From a virus (Duplodnaviria > Caudoviricetes), in IMG/VR virus record IMGVR_UViG_3300037520_000413, positions 1 through 27,817 of that record: a stretch of DNA of 27,817 nucleotides, one strand, 5' to 3'. Shown in pieces: positions 10,579 to 22,035 of this stretch. The notes under the pieces are model-generated. The model was not told the origin of the DNA and did no database searches. It was given only the letters and a program-made list of their open reading frames with translations. A program made the translations under genes and the position numbers. Position 1 is the first letter of the stretch. Every line of letters begins with the position of its first letter.

Positions 10579-10941
10579 TTATGCCAAGAATTTCAATTTG
10601 TACAAAGTCCGCAGATAAATCTCAACGATATTATCTATCAACTGTTGTAGCGATGAGTCTGATTTATCACAGACATTGTACCGAGCACCTTCAATCTCAG
10701 CCAACGAGTCTTCTAAGAACTCAATCACGTTGCTGGTCTTCTTTGCTGAGTGCAGGGTGATCGGGCCGATTAAACCGTGACGGCCTTGGTAGGCTTCGGC
10801 AAAATCATCAGCCGCACCAACGATGCGGTCATAGAAAATGTTGAGCGCTTGGTGCTTGCTAAAACTGCGAGTGTTCAAGTGAACGCTGTGCGTCACATCA
10901 CGGGCTAGAAATAGCAAGCCTAAAAAATCAGCGGGTTTCAT
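10579..10941 (-). CDS. Dps/ferritin-like four-helix protein (DUF5856-like)
   Basis: H-LNT-SFSKH.AL..FY......D.FAE pattern parallels the Dps ferroxidase ligands. It has an ATGA overlap with the portal stop. Confidence 0.7.
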   Translation of the reverse strand: MKPADFLGLLFLARDVTHSVHLNTRSFSKHQALNIFYDRIVGAADDFAEAYQGRHGLIGPITLHSAKKTSNVIEFLEDSLAEIEGARYNVCDKSDSSLQQLIDNIVEIYLRTLYKLKFLA

Positions 10942-14067: not shown

Positions 14068-15597
14068 CTAGCTTCCCATCCAAGATGTGTTGGCCGAAGT
14101 GTCTGAATACGTCCGGCGGGTGGTTGTGCGCGCATTGTACTCGCCCCGATGGGCCACGGGAAAGGCAAACGTCACTGCAATAGCGTCCGCAGCGTCTGGC
14201 GAGGCTAAACCGCGTGATTTCATGTCTTTTTTCGACTCCAAAAAGATTGTTCCACGTGAATCAGGCTTCATCATAGGCGAAATCAAGTCCGTCTTCAAGA
14301 ACCTGTCGTTCGGAATACTGGCCGTCTTGAGCCATTCCCGCATGTCGCCCCACATTTGCGCCCTCATGTTGCCGTACATGATCGGGTTTTTGGACTTGTT
14401 GCCAAAATTTACGCCCTTGATCTTGTAGCGCTGCTCTTTGAGCCTGTCCACAATGCCCGCCCCCAGCCCGCCCTCGTCAATGACGACCAGCGTGGGCTTG
14501 TATTCCTCAATGGCGTCAATCACATACCCCACCACGGTCATGGTGTCGTCGCCTCGGTGCCTGATGATCTTCACGATGTCGCGCCCCTGCCGCACGGCAA
14601 TGACTGTCGCGTCCGCACCGAACCGCGCCGGATCGACACCGATCACAATGGGCGCGCTCATGTCTTGGTATTTGACCCGCTTCATGGCCTCGTCGACCGT
14701 ATTGGCGCCGATGAACTGATCATCGCCCGCGCTTGGAAACTGGCCGTACACCTCGACGTGCGCCTGGGCTGAGTCCGGCCCGTACTCGTCGATGATCTGC
14801 TGGTAGACCGCCTTGTCTGTTCCTTCGACCGTGCGGGCGTCCACCACCTTGGTGTTCCAAAAGTCGCGCTTGGAGTGGAACGTCTCGTAGAAGTACCCCG
14901 TGTTGCGGCGGGGGTTGGAGAACGCAAACCAGAACCTGTTGGGCGTGTTCTCCGTAAAGAAACCTGCAGTCACCGCCCAGATGGCGTCATCAATACCACT
15001 GGCCTCGTCGAAGATGACCAGCACGCCGTCCATGTTGTGCACACCCGCAAACGCGTCTGGATTCTCAGCCGACCAGAGCCGGCCCTCAACGCCCCAGTAC
15101 CTGGTGCCCTTACGCAAATCGCGCTCAACCAACTCGGTCAGCCACTTGGCCGGTTGCAGGCTGGTGGCGCTGACCTCAAACCAGTGGCTGTTCAGCCCCA
15201 TCGCCAGCCACTTGGTAATCTCGGCCCAGGTCACCTTACGCAGCTGCGACTCGCTGTTGGCCGACACGATGGTTGTTGAGCCGATCCGCGTGGACAGCAT
15301 CCAGATAACCAGCCATGAGACTAGCGCCGACTTGCCAATACCACGGCCTGACGCGACCGCTTCGCGCAGGGTATCGAAGTCAATCTTGCCGCCGTTTTGC
15401 TTGATGTGCGCCGCGATGTCTTGCAACACCTCGCGCTGCCATTTGCGCGGGCCACTGAAATGTTCCAGCGGCGTGCCCTTGACGCCCCACGGGAACAGCA
15501 GCATCACGAACGCCAGCGGGTTGTCCTTGATTTGGGGCGACCACAGCCGCGCCATCAACTCTTGTTCGTCTTCAGCGCTGTACTTGGTGGACTGCAT
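14068..15597 (-). CDS. terL: Terminase large subunit
   Basis: Walker A ASGRGIGKS, Walker B LVIFDEASG, coupling motif SNP, and RNase H-fold IGVDPARFGAD and SPDAADA. Confidence 0.95.
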   Translation of the reverse strand: MQSTKYSAEDEQELMARLWSPQIKDNPLAFVMLLFPWGVKGTPLEHFSGPRKWQREVLQDIAAHIKQNGGKIDFDTLREAVASGRGIGKSALVSWLVIWMLSTRIGSTTIVSANSESQLRKVTWAEITKWLAMGLNSHWFEVSATSLQPAKWLTELVERDLRKGTRYWGVEGRLWSAENPDAFAGVHNMDGVLVIFDEASGIDDAIWAVTAGFFTENTPNRFWFAFSNPRRNTGYFYETFHSKRDFWNTKVVDARTVEGTDKAVYQQIIDEYGPDSAQAHVEVYGQFPSAGDDQFIGANTVDEAMKRVKYQDMSAPIVIGVDPARFGADATVIAVRQGRDIVKIIRHRGDDTMTVVGYVIDAIEEYKPTLVVIDEGGLGAGIVDRLKEQRYKIKGVNFGNKSKNPIMYGNMRAQMWGDMREWLKTASIPNDRFLKTDLISPMMKPDSRGTIFLESKKDMKSRGLASPDAADAIAVTFAFPVAHRGEYNARTTTRRTYSDTSANTSWMGS

Positions 15598-16018
15598 CTA
15601 GTTGTGGCGTGAGGTATTCACTTGGGTTGTTCTCAATAACGTCCATGACGCGCCGCTCGGCTTCGGCCAAGGCGGCGGTGATTGAGATGCGCTGATCCAC
15701 GTCGATGGTAATGGCCTGCTTGGCGACCCAACCGTGGACGTGTTGCAGAATTGCCAGGCTGGCTTTGGCGTCCCCCTCGGCGGCGGCTTTGTGCAGTTGG
15801 CGTGAGGCTTCTATCTCGCCATCAGCCTTGCCCTTTAACGCGGCAACTTCGGCGATCGGGTCAAGCTGGCACAGTTGGCGGTACTCGGTAGGCAACATGC
15901 CCGCAGCCATAGCCAAGCTGTCGCCTTTGAGGCCCAACTTGGCAGCATCGTAGATTCGGTTTAAGCGCGCCTCTGTCGCTTCGACTTTGCGCGCCTCAAA
16001 TGGAAGCGAGTAAAACAT
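15572..16018 (-). CDS. terS: Terminase small subunit (putative)
   Basis: Start reassigned to MFYSLP (GGAG RBS). It is a 148-aa helical protein with an N-terminal HTH-like segment and overlaps the terL start. Confidence 0.7.
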   Translation of the reverse strand: MFYSLPFEARKVEATEARLNRIYDAAKLGLKGDSLAMAAGMLPTEYRQLCQLDPIAEVAALKGKADGEIEASRQLHKAAAEGDAKASLAILQHVHGWVAKQAITIDVDQRISITAALAEAERRVMDVIENNPSEYLTPQLDAVHQVQR

Positions 16019-16130
16019 GGATTCTCCAGCCACTGGTACGTGTGCGCGGATTTTATACTAAAAAAAATTTTGTTTGTAGCCCCTCCGTTACCGGCTGGCC
16101 CTGCCGCTCGGCCCTACCCCCACCCCCTAA

Positions 16131-16257
16131 GTTAGTAAGCGCTTACTTACAGCCTGGTATGTGAGCACTTACTAACATGCACCGCCCCAGTTAGCACTCA
16201 CTTACAACCTGGTGAGTGAGTGCTGACTAACATCCTGGTTAGTGGGCGCTCACGCCA
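16131..16257. repeat. Array of five 20-bp imperfect palindromes, SlmA-binding-site-like
   Basis: GTTAGTAAGCGCTTACTTAC (16131), GTATGTGAGCACTTACTAAC (16157), CCCAGTTAGCACTCACTTAC (16186), GTGAGTGAGTGCTGACTAAC (16212), GTTAGTGGGCGCTCACGCCA (16238). The spacers are AGCCTG, a 9-bp spacer, AACCTG and ATCCTG. Confidence 0.9.
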
Positions 16258-16263
16258 GATCGC

Positions 16264-16619
16264 ATGGGTCATTTAGGCTAACCCAAACAGGTTGACAGCT
16301 TGCAACATGCGAGCCGGCCATGCGGCCACATAGCATGGGTCATTTGGGTCATGGCCTACATGTTGACCCATGTGGCACATGCGAGGGCTTTTGGCGCTCT
16401 CTGGGGGCTTTGGCGCGATGGGTCATTTGGGTCATTTAGCCATCAAATTTAAGTCGCTGCCTTATAACATTGCCACTGTATATATATACAGTATATTGAT
16501 AACTTCATAATTCAACTTATCAATGACCCAAATGACCCAAACAATAGGCTTTTCATTGGGGGCGCGCATGTGTCAAACGCCCCTAATCTGGCGTCAAACT
16601 TTTAGCACAAATGACCCAA
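16264..16619. repeat. TGGGTCATT iteron-like repeats in convergent orientation around an AT-rich core; candidate replication origin
   Basis: Forward copies at about 16265, 16336+16345 and 16419+16428. Inverted copies at about 16364, 16522+16531 and 16610. The segment 16440-16520 is AT-rich. Confidence 0.75.
16474..16493. promoter_or_regulatory. LexA (SOS) box
   Basis: CACTGTATATATATACAGTA is a 19/20 match to the E. coli-type consensus TACTGTATATATATACAGTA. Confidence 0.85.
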
Positions 16620-16624
16620 GTTTT

Positions 16625-16763
16625 TGTAAGCAATTCCATTACATAGGGTTTTGGAGGGGTCTTGTAAATCAATCACTTACAGCAACTGGCACGATTCTTC
16701 CCTGCTATATAGGTGAGAGGGTAGTAAAAATAAGCCCGTTCAAGTGCAAGAGAATCTGTTACA
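16625..16763. promoter_or_regulatory. Three operator-like palindromes TGYAA-N9-TTACA
   Basis: TGTAAgcaattccaTTACA (16625-16643), TGTAAatcaatcacTTACA (16663-16681) and TGCAAgagaatctgTTACA (16745-16763). Confidence 0.7.
16667..16701 (+). promoter_or_regulatory. IHF consensus site plus sigma54-like -24 element
   Basis: AATCAATCACTTA (16667-16679) matches WATCAANNNNTTR. CTGGCACGATTCTTCC (16686-16701) differs from YTGGCACGNNNNTTGC by one base, in the -12 GC. Confidence 0.5.
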
Positions 16764-16782
16764 GTAGAGACTTCAACAACCA

Positions 16783-16999
16783 AAGGAGCTAGCAACATGA
16801 CCAAATCAGAGCAACGCGAAATAGACCGAATCAAAGCCGCTGCACCCGTTCTAGGGTTTGACTACACGGCTCGCGCATTGTCCGCACTGTATCGCGCGGC
16901 ACGCACAGCTAAAAGCCGCGATGAAATTTACAGCGTAGTTTATGCATATGGTGCTTACAAATCAACCGAATTCATCATCTAAGGAGCTAGCAACATGAC
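16783..16999 (+). repeat. 19-bp direct repeat AAGGAGCTAGCAACATGAC (RBS plus start) at 16783-16801 and 16981-16999
   Basis: Exact copies form the translation starts of two consecutive, unrelated ORFs. Confidence 0.9.
16797..16982 (+). CDS. Hypothetical early protein (61 aa)
   Basis: Strong AAGGAG RBS; first gene of the plus-strand cluster. Confidence 0.75.
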   Translation: MTKSEQREIDRIKAAAPVLGFDYTARALSALYRAARTAKSRDEIYSVVYAYGAYKSTEFII

Positions 17000-17186
17000 T
17001 TCATTAAATTACATTGACCGCGTATTCACAGAGAACACGGGAGGCGGCACGATGGTTGACTTTGTACAGCTAAAAGATGGCCGCATTCTAGGCATCAACG
17101 ACGAATATGTCGTGCTCTATGAAAGCCTTGAGGCGTTCTATGAGTGCTTACCCATCAACCGCGAATCCATCAACCTAATAGGCTAA
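16995..17186 (+). CDS. Hypothetical early protein (63 aa)
   Basis: AAGGAG RBS; contains ENTGGGTMVD..QLKDGRILGI. Confidence 0.75.
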   Translation: MTSLNYIDRVFTENTGGGTMVDFVQLKDGRILGINDEYVVLYESLEAFYECLPINRESINLIG

Positions 17187-17189
17187 ATC

Positions 17190-17318
17190 ATGACCCGCTA
17201 TATCTTTACCCGCCGCCATGCCATGCGCGCCGCTATTTTGAACGCCGCCGGCGCTCTGGCGTTAATCGCCGGCGCCGTCGCGCTGATGCTTGCATATTTT
17301 GATGTTTTAGTTAAATAA
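17190..17318 (+). CDS. Small single-pass membrane protein (42 aa)
   Basis: Read manually: MTRYIFTRRHAMRAAILNAAGALALIAGAVALMLAYFDVLVK. It has a basic N-terminus and a hydrophobic helix, and fills the intergenic gap. Confidence 0.65.
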   Translation: MTRYIFTRRHAMRAAILNAAGALALIAGAVALMLAYFDVLVK

Positions 17319-17330
17319 AGGAAAACCGCC

Positions 17331-17669
17331 ATGCTACGCTCACCATCAATCAAAACCCTAAAAATCATTTTTGGCGACAATGCCGCTCGCGCAAAAGCAA
17401 TTTTGCTTATGAATCGTGAGCAATTGCTAAGAACGCCAGCCGGCGCCGCACGCGCTGCTGAGTGCTATAACCCGCCCACTACGCAAGATATCCGCATGGA
17501 ATGCCTGAACGAACTAGGCGATTTTCATGGCGTTGAATATTTCGACACTAAACAAGGCGGGTGCATGTACTTGAACGCCGGCGACACTTACGCGCCCACA
17601 TTGGTGCGGCATAACGGGGTTTATCGGGTTAGTTCATGGGGCGATATCGCTGAACGCCACGCCGCCTGA
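17331..17669 (+). CDS. Hypothetical early protein (112 aa)
   Basis: AAGGA RBS; contains HGVE...YLNAGDTYAPT...VSSWGDIAE. Confidence 0.8.
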   Translation: MLRSPSIKTLKIIFGDNAARAKAILLMNREQLLRTPAGAARAAECYNPPTTQDIRMECLNELGDFHGVEYFDTKQGGCMYLNAGDTYAPTLVRHNGVYRVSSWGDIAERHAA

Positions 17670-17721
17670 CAATGCCAGCTTATGCGCCTTATGTAGGGCG
17701 CATAGGCGGGAAATTGTCCCG
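17668..17721 (+). other. Long imperfect intergenic RNA hairpin
   Basis: GACAAT g CC a GCTTATGCGCCTT atgt AGGGCGCATAGGC g GG aa ATTGTC, with no U-tract. Confidence 0.6.
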
Positions 17722-17739
17722 ATAACAGTGGAGTAAATT

Positions 17740-18057
17740 ATGATCCAGACAATCAATGTTTCAGACTTCCGCGATGCCTTTCGCGCGTATGGCCGGCATG
17801 AGCAATTCAGTTATGAGGGGCTTGGCGCTCTGTTTGACTATTTAGAAGACGCCGCGCCGTCCTATGAACTTGATGTCATAGCGCTTTGCTGCGACTACTC
17901 AGAAGATACAGTCGAGCAGATCGCAGAAGCCTATGGGCTGGAATTGCCGCCAAATGAAACAGAGGAGGAGCACCAGGCGGCCGTGCGCGATTACTTGGAC
18001 GACCGAACCCAAATTGTGGCCGAATTAGACGGCCGGTTTTTGTACTCTCAATTTTAA
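17740..18057 (+). CDS. Acidic early protein (105 aa)
   Basis: GGAG RBS. By hand count it has 24 D/E, 6 R and no K. Contains FSYEGL..LFDYLE...ELDVIALCCDYSE. Confidence 0.8.
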   Translation: MIQTINVSDFRDAFRAYGRHEQFSYEGLGALFDYLEDAAPSYELDVIALCCDYSEDTVEQIAEAYGLELPPNETEEEHQAAVRDYLDDRTQIVAELDGRFLYSQF

Positions 18058-18069
18058 GGAAACCACGCC

Positions 18070-18345
18070 ATGAACACAATCACTATCGGGCGCACTACTT
18101 ACAAACTGCGCGACACATCAACCATTTTTGCAGACCATGCCAAGTGCACCGGTAAGCATAAAAAAGTTAAGGTAAAGGCTGATAAACCGCGTTTTTACCC
18201 GCCACAAGGCGCCAGCATGAGCACCGCCGATTATGTGCGCGCTTATGAGAACATGAACAGCAAAATCATGCCTTGGGACTGGCAACCATTGACCGAACAC
18301 ATCAGCCAAGTTCAAGGCGAAGACACTTTTGAGGTGGAAGCATGA
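18070..18345 (+). CDS. Hypothetical protein (91 aa)
   Basis: AAGGA RBS; ATGA overlap with the next gene. Confidence 0.75.
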   Translation: MNTITIGRTTYKLRDTSTIFADHAKCTGKHKKVKVKADKPRFYPPQGASMSTADYVRAYENMNSKIMPWDWQPLTEHISQVQGEDTFEVEA

Positions 18346-18578
18346 AACAAGCAGACTACAACAGGCTCGAAGCCATGCTAGGCCGCGCGCAAGAATTGGC
18401 CGCGCAAGTGCTGAACGGGGAAGCGCCTGAAAGCGCCCTCGCTGAAGAAGTGTCTGGCGAATGTGCCGAATTGCTAGCGCTCATGGATGGCGACATGGCC
18501 GCGTTTAGTGAGCCTGATCTTATCGATCCCGAATTGCTGGCTTTGGCCGGCGCGTTACAGCCGGAGGTGCAAGTATGA
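18342..18578 (+). CDS. Acidic helical hypothetical protein (78 aa)
   Basis: GAGG RBS and ATGA coupling at both ends. By hand count it has 16 D/E and 3 K/R. Confidence 0.7.
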   Translation: MKQADYNRLEAMLGRAQELAAQVLNGEAPESALAEEVSGECAELLALMDGDMAAFSEPDLIDPELLALAGALQPEVQV

Positions 18579-18724
18579 TAGATATGCGAGTTCCATCCTA
18601 CGGGTTAGTTCTGCAACTACTGAACGCCGCCCTTTGCGAGTTAACGCATGGGGAGACTGAAGAGGCCATTGCCACTATTGAACAAGCGCGCTCACTGTTG
18701 GAAAGTCTAGGGGTTGACGCATGA
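18575..18724 (+). CDS. Hypothetical protein (49 aa)
   Basis: Read manually: MIDMRVPSYGLVLQLLNAALCELTHGETEEAIATIEQARSLLESLGVDA. GGAGG RBS and ATGA overlaps at both ends. Confidence 0.7.
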   Translation: MIDMRVPSYGLVLQLLNAALCELTHGETEEAIATIEQARSLLESLGVDA

Positions 18725-18924
18725 AAGGCGTACCCTACACAGTGCGAGGGCTGGCCCTCGAATGCGAATTTGAATTTGAAGCCGGCGAACCGCGGACGCT
18801 GGACGATCCAGGATGGCCGGACATTTACACTTTAACCGGTGCATGGCTGAACGGCGTTAGTGTCATGCCGATCATTGACCCTGCGGTTGTGCAAGAGTTA
18901 GAAGAACGCGCCCGATGGCCGTAG
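18721..18924 (+). CDS. Hypothetical protein (67 aa)
   Basis: ATGA-coupled; contains EAGEPRTLDDPGWP. Confidence 0.7.
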   Translation: MKGVPYTVRGLALECEFEFEAGEPRTLDDPGWPDIYTLTGAWLNGVSVMPIIDPAVVQELEERARWP

Positions 18925-21333: not shown

Positions 21334-22035
21334 TTACAGTGAACAGACGCGGCAAGTCGCCACACTCCCGTCACCGCGAATCTTGCGGCCACTTTCAAAC
21401 TCTAAGGCCAACTCTTTAAGCGATGCCGGCCAAGTGTCGCGCTGCGGCGACCGGAAGGTGTGCCCCAGCTTCTCCTCCACGGCCACGCCCTTAGCGTATT
21501 CTTCTGGGTAGTCACGCCACAAGTCACGCCACTCGCCTAGACGCTGATAGGGGCACACGGCGCAGTCAGTGCGGCGCGGTATCGACACGCCGCGCTCGGC
21601 CAAGTACGCCCAAACCTTTGCTTCGTTCCAGCCCCACTCACGCATCGGAAACCTGATTTTCATGTCTTCGCCGTAGATGCCGCGCCTGGCTTCTTCGTCA
21701 GCGCGCAGGCCCACATACAAGACCGAACCTTCAGGCAGCGATTCAAAATACTCAATAGTCGGTTCGATCTTGAGGATGCGCGTACACCATCTGGCGCGAA
21801 AGTTTGGCAGCATCTGCATCTCGTCAATCAGGCCGTACAGGTCTGTCTTGTGACCAACTTTTTTAATCGGCAGGCCCAGCATCTGCTCCAGTTTGGCCCA
21901 GTGGTCAACCATCTCAGGCAACTCGTTGCCAGTGGCGTTGCAGATCAACTCGTACTCACGCGGCTCGACTTCCATCAGCCGCAGCGCCAAGGCGGTCGAG
22001 TCTTTGCCGCCGCTTAAACCAATGACATGTTTCAT
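21334..22035 (-). CDS. PAPS-reductase-family / PP-loop adenine nucleotide hydrolase protein
   Basis: PP-loop SGGKDS, RWCTRILKIEP, GLRADEEARR, RTDCAVCP and C-terminal CRVC. ATGA-coupled to the polymerase. Confidence 0.85.
   Translation of the reverse strand: MKHVIGLSGGKDSTALALRLMEVEPREYELICNATGNELPEMVDHWAKLEQMLGLPIKKVGHKTDLYGLIDEMQMLPNFRARWCTRILKIEPTIEYFESLPEGSVLYVGLRADEEARRGIYGEDMKIRFPMREWGWNEAKVWAYLAERGVSIPRRTDCAVCPYQRLGEWRDLWRDYPEEYAKGVAVEEKLGHTFRSPQRDTWPASLKELALEFESGRKIRGDGSVATCRVCSL

Follow-up and report, generated by a model that had tools for sequence, protein, structure and literature searches.

Natural tandem arrays of palindromes of the SlmA-binding-site (SBS) type are carried by phages, among them a lake phage with five such sites ahead of its terminase genes. 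SlmA is a bacterial protein that keeps cells from dividing across their DNA. The SBS itself and the effect of placing it on multicopy plasmids were already known; the natural arrays appear to be new. The sequence-only reading knew of no description of such a system in phages, and the literature searched, consisting mostly of open-access main texts, yielded no description of natural arrays on phage DNA. The array was located in a window of 27,817 nt, the whole stretch of DNA analysed here, which makes up most of a podovirus-type phage. Judged from motif and genome comparisons, SlmA of the host is the probable binder of the sites; that its capture by the array stalls host division is put forward more tentatively, as a reading held at somewhat below an even chance.

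Five SBS-type sites ahead of terS

The 127-bp array consists of five imperfect 20-bp palindromes starting at 16131, 16157, 16186, 16212 and 16238, with periods of 26, 29, 26 and 26 and with spacers that read, in order, AGCCTG, ATGCACCGC, AACCTG and ATCCTG. From site 1 to site 5 the 12-bp cores differ from GTGAGTACTCAC at 4, 2, 2, 2 and 3 positions. All of these features (palindromes, periods, three ANCCTG spacers and core differences) had been described from the letters alone and were re-derived exactly from the window. The departures from GTGAGTACTCAC fall mostly at positions that SlmA tolerates under the experimental half-site rule of Tonthat 2011, by which positions 1, 2, 4 and 5 are reported to require G, T, A and G, position 3 a purine and position 6 a pyrimidine (PMC3020112). 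Core mismatches to this rule number 0, 0, 1, 1 and 1, such that each site retains the G-T-purine-A-G-pyrimidine palindrome with at most one mismatch, while mismatches to the degenerate 20-mer GTWAGTRAGYRCTYACTWAC number 0, 1, 4, 2 and 5. Site 1 (16131..16150; GTTAGTAAGCGCTTACTTAC) is the best of the five and has 3 mismatches to the published E. coli consensus. The extended GTWA/TWAC flanks are present in site 1, site 2 (16157..16176) and site 4 (16212..16231); site 3 (16186..16205) and site 5 (16238..16257), because of their 4 and 5 mismatches to the 20-mer, each have one good flank only, the other being degenerate. None of the five is assigned to a strand.

The window contained 10 strand-matches to the motif as against a shuffle mean of 0.30, and none of 7640 simulated windows held three or more sites inside 130 bp. 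Beyond the array, the window had no additional site at up to 5 mismatches. The array was covered without differences by overlapping contigs from lake metagenome runs X1, X2 and X3, with a variant in X6, and was identical in IMG/VR contigs L001 and L002. Since independent lake metagenome contigs carry it, the array is not an assembly artefact. All 24 of the records listed as holding the sequence are lake-water metagenomes, with no RNA datasets among the listed holders.

The window encodes P22-like portal, coat and tail proteins together with a family A polymerase, a primase, an exonuclease and a SNF2 helicase. The polymerase and primase genes have a PAPS-reductase-family gene (21334-22035, minus strand) between them, and the portal gene is followed by a DUF5856 gene that is Dps-like by PHROG (10579-10941, minus strand). 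The terminase large subunit gene, terL, occupies 14068..15597 on the minus strand (phrog_2, E 8e-44). The putative small subunit gene, terS (15572..16033, minus strand; likely start ATG at 16018), is named for its position before terL. Its product gave no match in Pfam or PHROG; among its neighbours in the Atlas is a cluster of terminase small subunits, at 0.95, and the gene is kept in all but one of 16 family genomes.

Towards terS, the intergenic region presents in order an early promoter that carries a LexA-type box, a set of iteron-like repeats, the array, 3 bp, a G-run, a GC stretch and an A/T tract. The promoter is sigma-70-like (16470..16497, plus strand) and is overlapped by the box CTGTATATATATACAG at 16476-16491, named after what we take to be the LexA consensus. 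It precedes a small early gene cluster (16797..18924, plus strand) that reads away from the array and encodes no TetR protein or member of another recognised DNA-binding family. Iteron-like repeats of the sequence TGACCCA/TGGGTCA, nine in all and in both direct and inverted order (16264..16620, no strand assigned), form a possible replication origin. In close relatives these 7 to 9 bp repeats, upstream of terS at the corresponding place and likewise in direct and inverted clusters, change type among TGACCCA, TGTCCAC, TGCCCAC and TGCCAAC (window 16264-16620; L009-L013, L023, L063, L076), and the switching repeats may represent an origin with changing specificity. The G-run, GC stretch and A/T tract (16060..16127, minus strand), 3 bp from site 1, are conserved, a single regular expression matching 42 of 53 relatives, and were found in relatives with and without the array. 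By analogy, this G-run element is presumed to be a packaging-start (pac-like) and/or late-promoter element.

An optional cassette in relatives and unrelated phages

Of 80 TerL relatives, 53 had enough upstream DNA to be scored. At up to 4 mismatches, three or more sites were present in 21 of these and one site in seven, with no site in the remaining 25; an equal-length stretch of terL, used as control, gave sites in 0 of 53. The array was without counterpart in L008 despite 98% TerL identity. On a TerL tree of 47 tips the array changed state at least 6 times, as compared with a mean of 14.6 and a minimum of 8 in shuffles, from which the array appears to be inherited yet optional. Recognition by the terminase (pac/cos) would place the sites wherever the terminase is, and their absence from L008 and from the 25 site-free relatives speaks against it; the conserved part of the locus is the neighbouring G-run element, not the array.

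Other palindromes were found in the same region of the relatives, namely LexA-type boxes in 14 of 53, AGGGTWWACCCT in 9 and TAAAGTAYTACA in 7, each absent from the terL control (0/53). Clusters of LexA-box-like CTGT-N8-ACAG variants occupy the slot in L054, L056, L057, L070, L076 and L080, where any SlmA-type site is weak and none of these phages has more than one. The AGGGTWWACCCT palindrome was seen in this region across several phage lineages (L014, L055, L078, L220, L226, L281, L365).

Among viruses at large, the two-site tandem pattern was estimated to occur in about 370 stretches (119 were retrieved) versus 7 for the complemented control, and the three-site pattern occurred in 67; the control, though equally palindromic, was thus about 50-fold rarer than the two-site SlmA-type pattern. 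Arrays hold from 1 to 9 sites, at varying spacing, and the loci that bear them span at least five terS families. Conservation upstream of terS, raised earlier as a point to examine, was thus observed both as retention in relatives and as recurrence in unrelated phages. Of 79 loci with flanks, 59 had a terminase gene downstream of the array, at a distance of no more than 1.2 kb in 55 cases; in 17 loci the flank contained no recognised terminase, and in 3 there was terS upstream only. These counts are not independent, since many of the loci are close kin. In cultured phages, BLAST of two arrays gave chance-level matches only, RpY1, P26218, MW202898 and Vibrio phage Her had no site at up to 3 mismatches, and DSL-LC05 and MW202483 had no array.

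Several loci showed further features. Other lineages (L226, L228, L256, L261, L365; L220, L241, L251) have, within or next to their SlmA-type arrays, boxes that by eye are NtrC-like (TGCACCA-N3-TGGTGCA), PhaR-like (TGTTGCA-N-TGCAACA) and Fur-like (ATGAGAATCATT); these were found in none of the 53 relatives in the phage's own family. In one lineage (L217, L266, L278, L282, L285) a pair of sites lies between terS and terL, not upstream of terS. A metagenome contig (L497:1492-2217) holds 18 SBS-like cores in a complex array of ~100-bp repeats, and the contig L252 (1-90) opens with an inverted repeat around two sites, closing in the G-run, possibly an artefact of assembly where a genome ends.

SlmA of the host as candidate binder

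A position matrix built from 304 distinct phage sites gave flank frequencies of G 0.75, T 0.74, W 0.90 and A 0.90. The proposal that the phage palindromes match the SlmA site, GTWA/TWAC flanks included, gains from this, since the flanks emerged though the search pattern did not force them. The phage flank consensus agrees with the E. coli 20-mer GTAAGTGAGCGCTCACTTAC, as given in PMC7468209, and the third commonest phage flank, CGAA (37 of 608 half sites), is the flank reported for natural SBS12 (PMC4117426). A scan of E. coli MG1655 with the phage 20-mer returned 13 sites versus 2 for the control; none lay between 0.1 and 2.6 Mb, and one was SBS17, indicating that the motif marks Ter-excluded sites in an organism where SlmA is proven. 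The phage sites accordingly resemble the chromosomal SBSs of E. coli and V. cholerae in core rule, in 20-bp flanks and in the E. coli sites they retrieve (PMC3020112, PMC3573117). They differ in that the chromosomal SBSs are described as 24 to 52 dispersed, degenerate sites (PMC3573117), whereas the phage sites are near-consensus, arranged head to tail and placed by terminase genes. The SlmA nucleoid-occlusion system, moreover, relies on dispersed single chromosomal sites and not on a single tandem phage array, and SlmA binding is known for E. coli and V. cholerae, whereas the host here is probably betaproteobacterial. No gene for a binder of this type was found in the phage, and therefore it is likely that host SlmA occupies the array.

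The host is probably an slmA-positive Burkholderiales bacterium. Pointers to this order were the LexA-type box, the nearest cultured TerL relatives, which are Ralstonia phages at 49% identity, and a Betaproteobacteria bin in which a 72% TerL and a fragment of an array occur, each on a short contig of its own, which may reflect co-binning. For phage DSL-LC05 the predicted host is given as Gammaproteobacteria (PMC10611076). No host name was obtained from the protein clusters of the phage. The sequence TGCTCCTTAATCGATAGC, presumably a Comamonadaceae chromosomal repeat, was also tried for host assignment and was dropped after yielding 12 scattered matches in 151 genomes.

Within the likely host order, that of the Betaproteobacteria bin, slmA was found over cut-off in 109 of 151 genomes. 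The best 30 of the 109 proteins by score were aligned together with L203. Residues T31, S42, E43, A44, A45, Y47, R48, H49 and K53 were identical in 31 of 31, and the DNA-reading residues of Vibrio SlmA, among which T31 and E43 are named (bioRxiv 10.1101/141812), were kept in all 31. The surface that contacts FtsZ was less uniform, with F65 kept in 30 of 31 and N102 in 31 of 31, R73 replaced by leucine in 28 of 31 and R101 by lysine in 30 of 31. The one FtsZ inspected ends in DIPAFLRRQAD.

The number of chromosomal sites in the 151 genomes was not enriched (191 vs 283 for the control). In 13 near-complete slmA-positive chromosomes, the half containing dnaA held 21 of 22 sites as compared with 10 of 21 for the control (p 7e-5), with dnaA serving as origin proxy, seven lengths rounded and one counted site apparently in a prophage; these 13 remained from 24 genomes after removal of six that were fragmented and five without a site of either pattern. 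The bias persisted without G145 (14 of 15 sites, p 0.002), a genome in which 27 of 36 core sites lie within 320 kb of dnaA. When the 12-mer core was scanned, two of three genomes, G024 and the listed part of G153, had no origin cluster. Of 20 sites chosen for context, with translations read, six lie in or beside rsmG in the mnmG-rsmG-parA locus, and another three are close to hemE, priA or rep; rsmG- or hemE/priA-linked sites were seen on chromosomes of the order in L425, L428, L431, L432, L433 and L440. On another slmA-positive chromosome (L438; G054:C1, about 21,885) a 2-mismatch site lies between portal/head-like genes of an apparent prophage. Because the chromosomal sites are origin-biased, betaproteobacterial SlmA may bind DNA in the same way as its E. 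coli and Vibrio counterparts, and the comparison suggests that it has an SBS set of its own. Of the expectation that the host lineage would have slmA and a Ter-depleted motif, the gene and the positional bias were seen in the likely order, and an excess of sites was not. No study of betaproteobacterial SlmA was found in the literature searched.

These observations allow a model in which the array captures host SlmA and FtsZ is antagonised as phage DNA multiplies, so that host division stalls. The array would act as an accessory cassette inserted between the iteron-like repeats and the conserved G-run ahead of terS. SlmA of an slmA-positive Burkholderiales host would bind it as two dimers per site, following the E. 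coli and Vibrio precedent, giving up to ten dimers per genome; replication would then lift the number of phage sites over that of the few strong chromosomal sites, and DNA-bound SlmA would antagonise FtsZ throughout the cell. A pUC plasmid bearing two SBSs is reported to turn SlmA of E. coli into a lethal, cell-wide Z-ring inhibitor at about 4-fold SlmA, in cells that otherwise have about 500 SlmA dimers for their 24 to 52 sites (PMC3573117). The laboratory plasmids pHC534 and p2SBSK likewise carry tandem SBSs on high-copy DNA, as described in PMC3573117 and PMC4117426, but are engineered and were used with mildly overproduced SlmA, whereas the phage cassette is natural and has been repeatedly gained or lost. 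The outcome proposed for the array, a block of FtsZ during infection, is that of lambda Kil, Qin DicB and DicF and the T7 FtsZ inhibitor, and DicB in particular is described as recruiting a host inhibitor, MinC; these division inhibitors are proteins or RNA, with Kil reported to be SlmA-independent, whereas the array would express nothing (PMC3961180).

The model is supported by the sites themselves, by their agreement with the SlmA motif, by the way they recur in unrelated phages and by the lack of a TetR gene among those found in the phage. The variation in site number and spacing is more in keeping with an effect of dose than with an exact architectural function. Counting against a division block are the replacement of the FtsZ-contact residue R73 by leucine in most of the aligned proteins, a probable host inferred from pointers, the relatives that are site-free, the unenriched Burkholderiales chromosomes, the reading of the same motif by other TetR repressors, its presence in a Rhizobium phage-plasmid (below) whose host lineage appears to lack slmA, the lack of such an array in the cultured phages searched, and the pUC plasmid and raised SlmA level used for the laboratory effect.

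SlmA might instead bind the array and act locally, capping or shaping DNA by the packaging start, protecting the origin-bearing end after the terminase cut or tuning a late terS promoter 70 to 200 bp away, an alternative that we consider doubtful though well worth retaining. In 56 of 79 viral loci the array had a G-run no more than 60 nt away, versus 5% at random. Of the 55 loci whose downstream terminase gene was within 1.2 kb, 51 had the G-run this near, and its distance past the last core was often 6 to 7 nt. This adjacency supports a local role, since an effect of copy number does not need it, as do the other palindromes that relatives place in the same slot and the finding that Vibrio SlmA is a position-dependent transcription activator, as reported in bioRxiv 10.1101/141812. 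The slot, on the other hand, may simply be the sole free non-coding space, the number and spacing of sites vary, contig breaks and read ends gave no position for the genome end and showed no pile-up of ends next to the array, and the cassette is dispensable on the TerL tree while the G-run element stays. A host protein that shapes DNA at a packaging site has a precedent in IHF at lambda cos, where host-protein sites also adjoin the terminase recognition region; those are fixed, single architectural sites, whereas the phage cassette is optional, multimeric and exchangeable.

Other binders of the same motif

The 20-bp motif is not private to SlmA but is a general operator of a TetR clade in many phyla. 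Of 120 exact chromosomal 20-mers, 76 lay within 300 bp of a non-SlmA tetR gene, in many phyla, and these neighbouring genes encode a recognition helix of the type seen in SlmA. Across GTDB, slmA-positive taxa showed no enrichment for the full 20-mer, most matches being tetR operators. The array might then be a decoy for another host TetR repressor with this helix, so that the genes it controls, such as those of an efflux or lipid operon, would be derepressed; we regard this as improbable. Operators of this kind, autoregulatory for TetR repressors with an SE(A/G)xL(Y/F)RHF helix, share the palindrome and are sometimes paired about 27 bp apart, and 10 of 80 metagenome tandem loci proved to be tetR operator pairs; in 9 of those 10, however, there were two sites beside their own gene, whereas the phage arrays reach nine sites with no tetR, and no cognate tetR was found adjacent to the array or on the same replicon. 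Further SlmA-like TetR proteins (E below 1e-20) were found in 7 of 151 Burkholderiales-order genomes, as against 109 with slmA, and the phage flanks mirror natural SBS variants. More favourable to a decoy is the cultured Rhizobium phage-plasmid B1VFA (MT770738.1, W04), which has 29 genome-wide matches to the 20-mer (for example L374:1450-1520 and 2467-2490). Its host lineage gave no slmA over cut-off in 61 genomes, these being of a Rhizobiales-type order, the order of a Devosia bin.

The B1VFA sites inspected are intergenic, ahead of capsid-region genes, and resemble the dispersed operators that a phage-encoded regulator would have; a search of that genome gave no TetR gene, and the paper describing it does not mention the motif but notes a predicted DNA-binding protein (PMC12509600). 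Together with the position of the array between the iteron-like repeats and terS, this would favour a phage protein (TerS, primase-helicase or a small HTH protein) that recognises the sites, whether these serve as operators or as signals for packaging or replication, a reading that we judge slightly more improbable than a decoy. The sequence-only reading saw no TetR-like gene that could own the sites, and its observation held well beyond the window: TetR_N was over cut-off in 0 of 36 phage records, a set with array-bearing relatives and with 14 virus records of 90% completeness or more, gave no match in G155, a 98% complete copy of the phage, and had a best E of 1.1 among 16,995 viral ORFs. 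No ORF family occurred in each of the 9 array-positive genomes of the phage's family while missing from all 7 array-negative ones, and none was common to the unrelated, array-bearing G163, G164 and G167 and the family of the window phage. The small HTH protein was found in array-negative genomes only. The same motif, moreover, stands beside unrelated terS families, and near-identical terminases occur without it.

That the array is a secondary structure of DNA or RNA (hairpins, cruciforms) or a slippage-expanded repeat with no binder is the least probable reading of all and very unlikely, for although neighbouring sites pair as hairpins (z -4.8) and the arrays of L223 and L232 are perfect tandem expansions, any tandem palindrome would fold likewise, it is one specific 20-mer and not palindromy that is kept across unrelated phages, with the control pattern so much rarer, and Rfam gave 0 matches in 15900-16900 at E up to 1.

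Taken together, the relatives and the unrelated loci raise the wider and more speculative proposal, to which we give slightly less credence than to the division-block model itself, that by the packaging start numerous unrelated phages of fresh water maintain a slot with interchangeable contents, filled by arrays of host-protein sites. In the SlmA version the replicating genome would be the division inhibitor, a takeover by DNA only, and LexA-type and other-box versions would likewise titrate or recruit other host regulators. If the arrays recruit and activate SlmA, they would be a natural counterpart, widespread in lake phages, of the laboratory effect of multicopy SBSs. Non-coding phage DNA would then have to be read as a host-takeover module, whereas the familiar phage blockers of division are proteins or RNAs. 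The arrays also offer near-perfect natural sites with which to ask whether betaproteobacterial SlmA carries out nucleoid occlusion.
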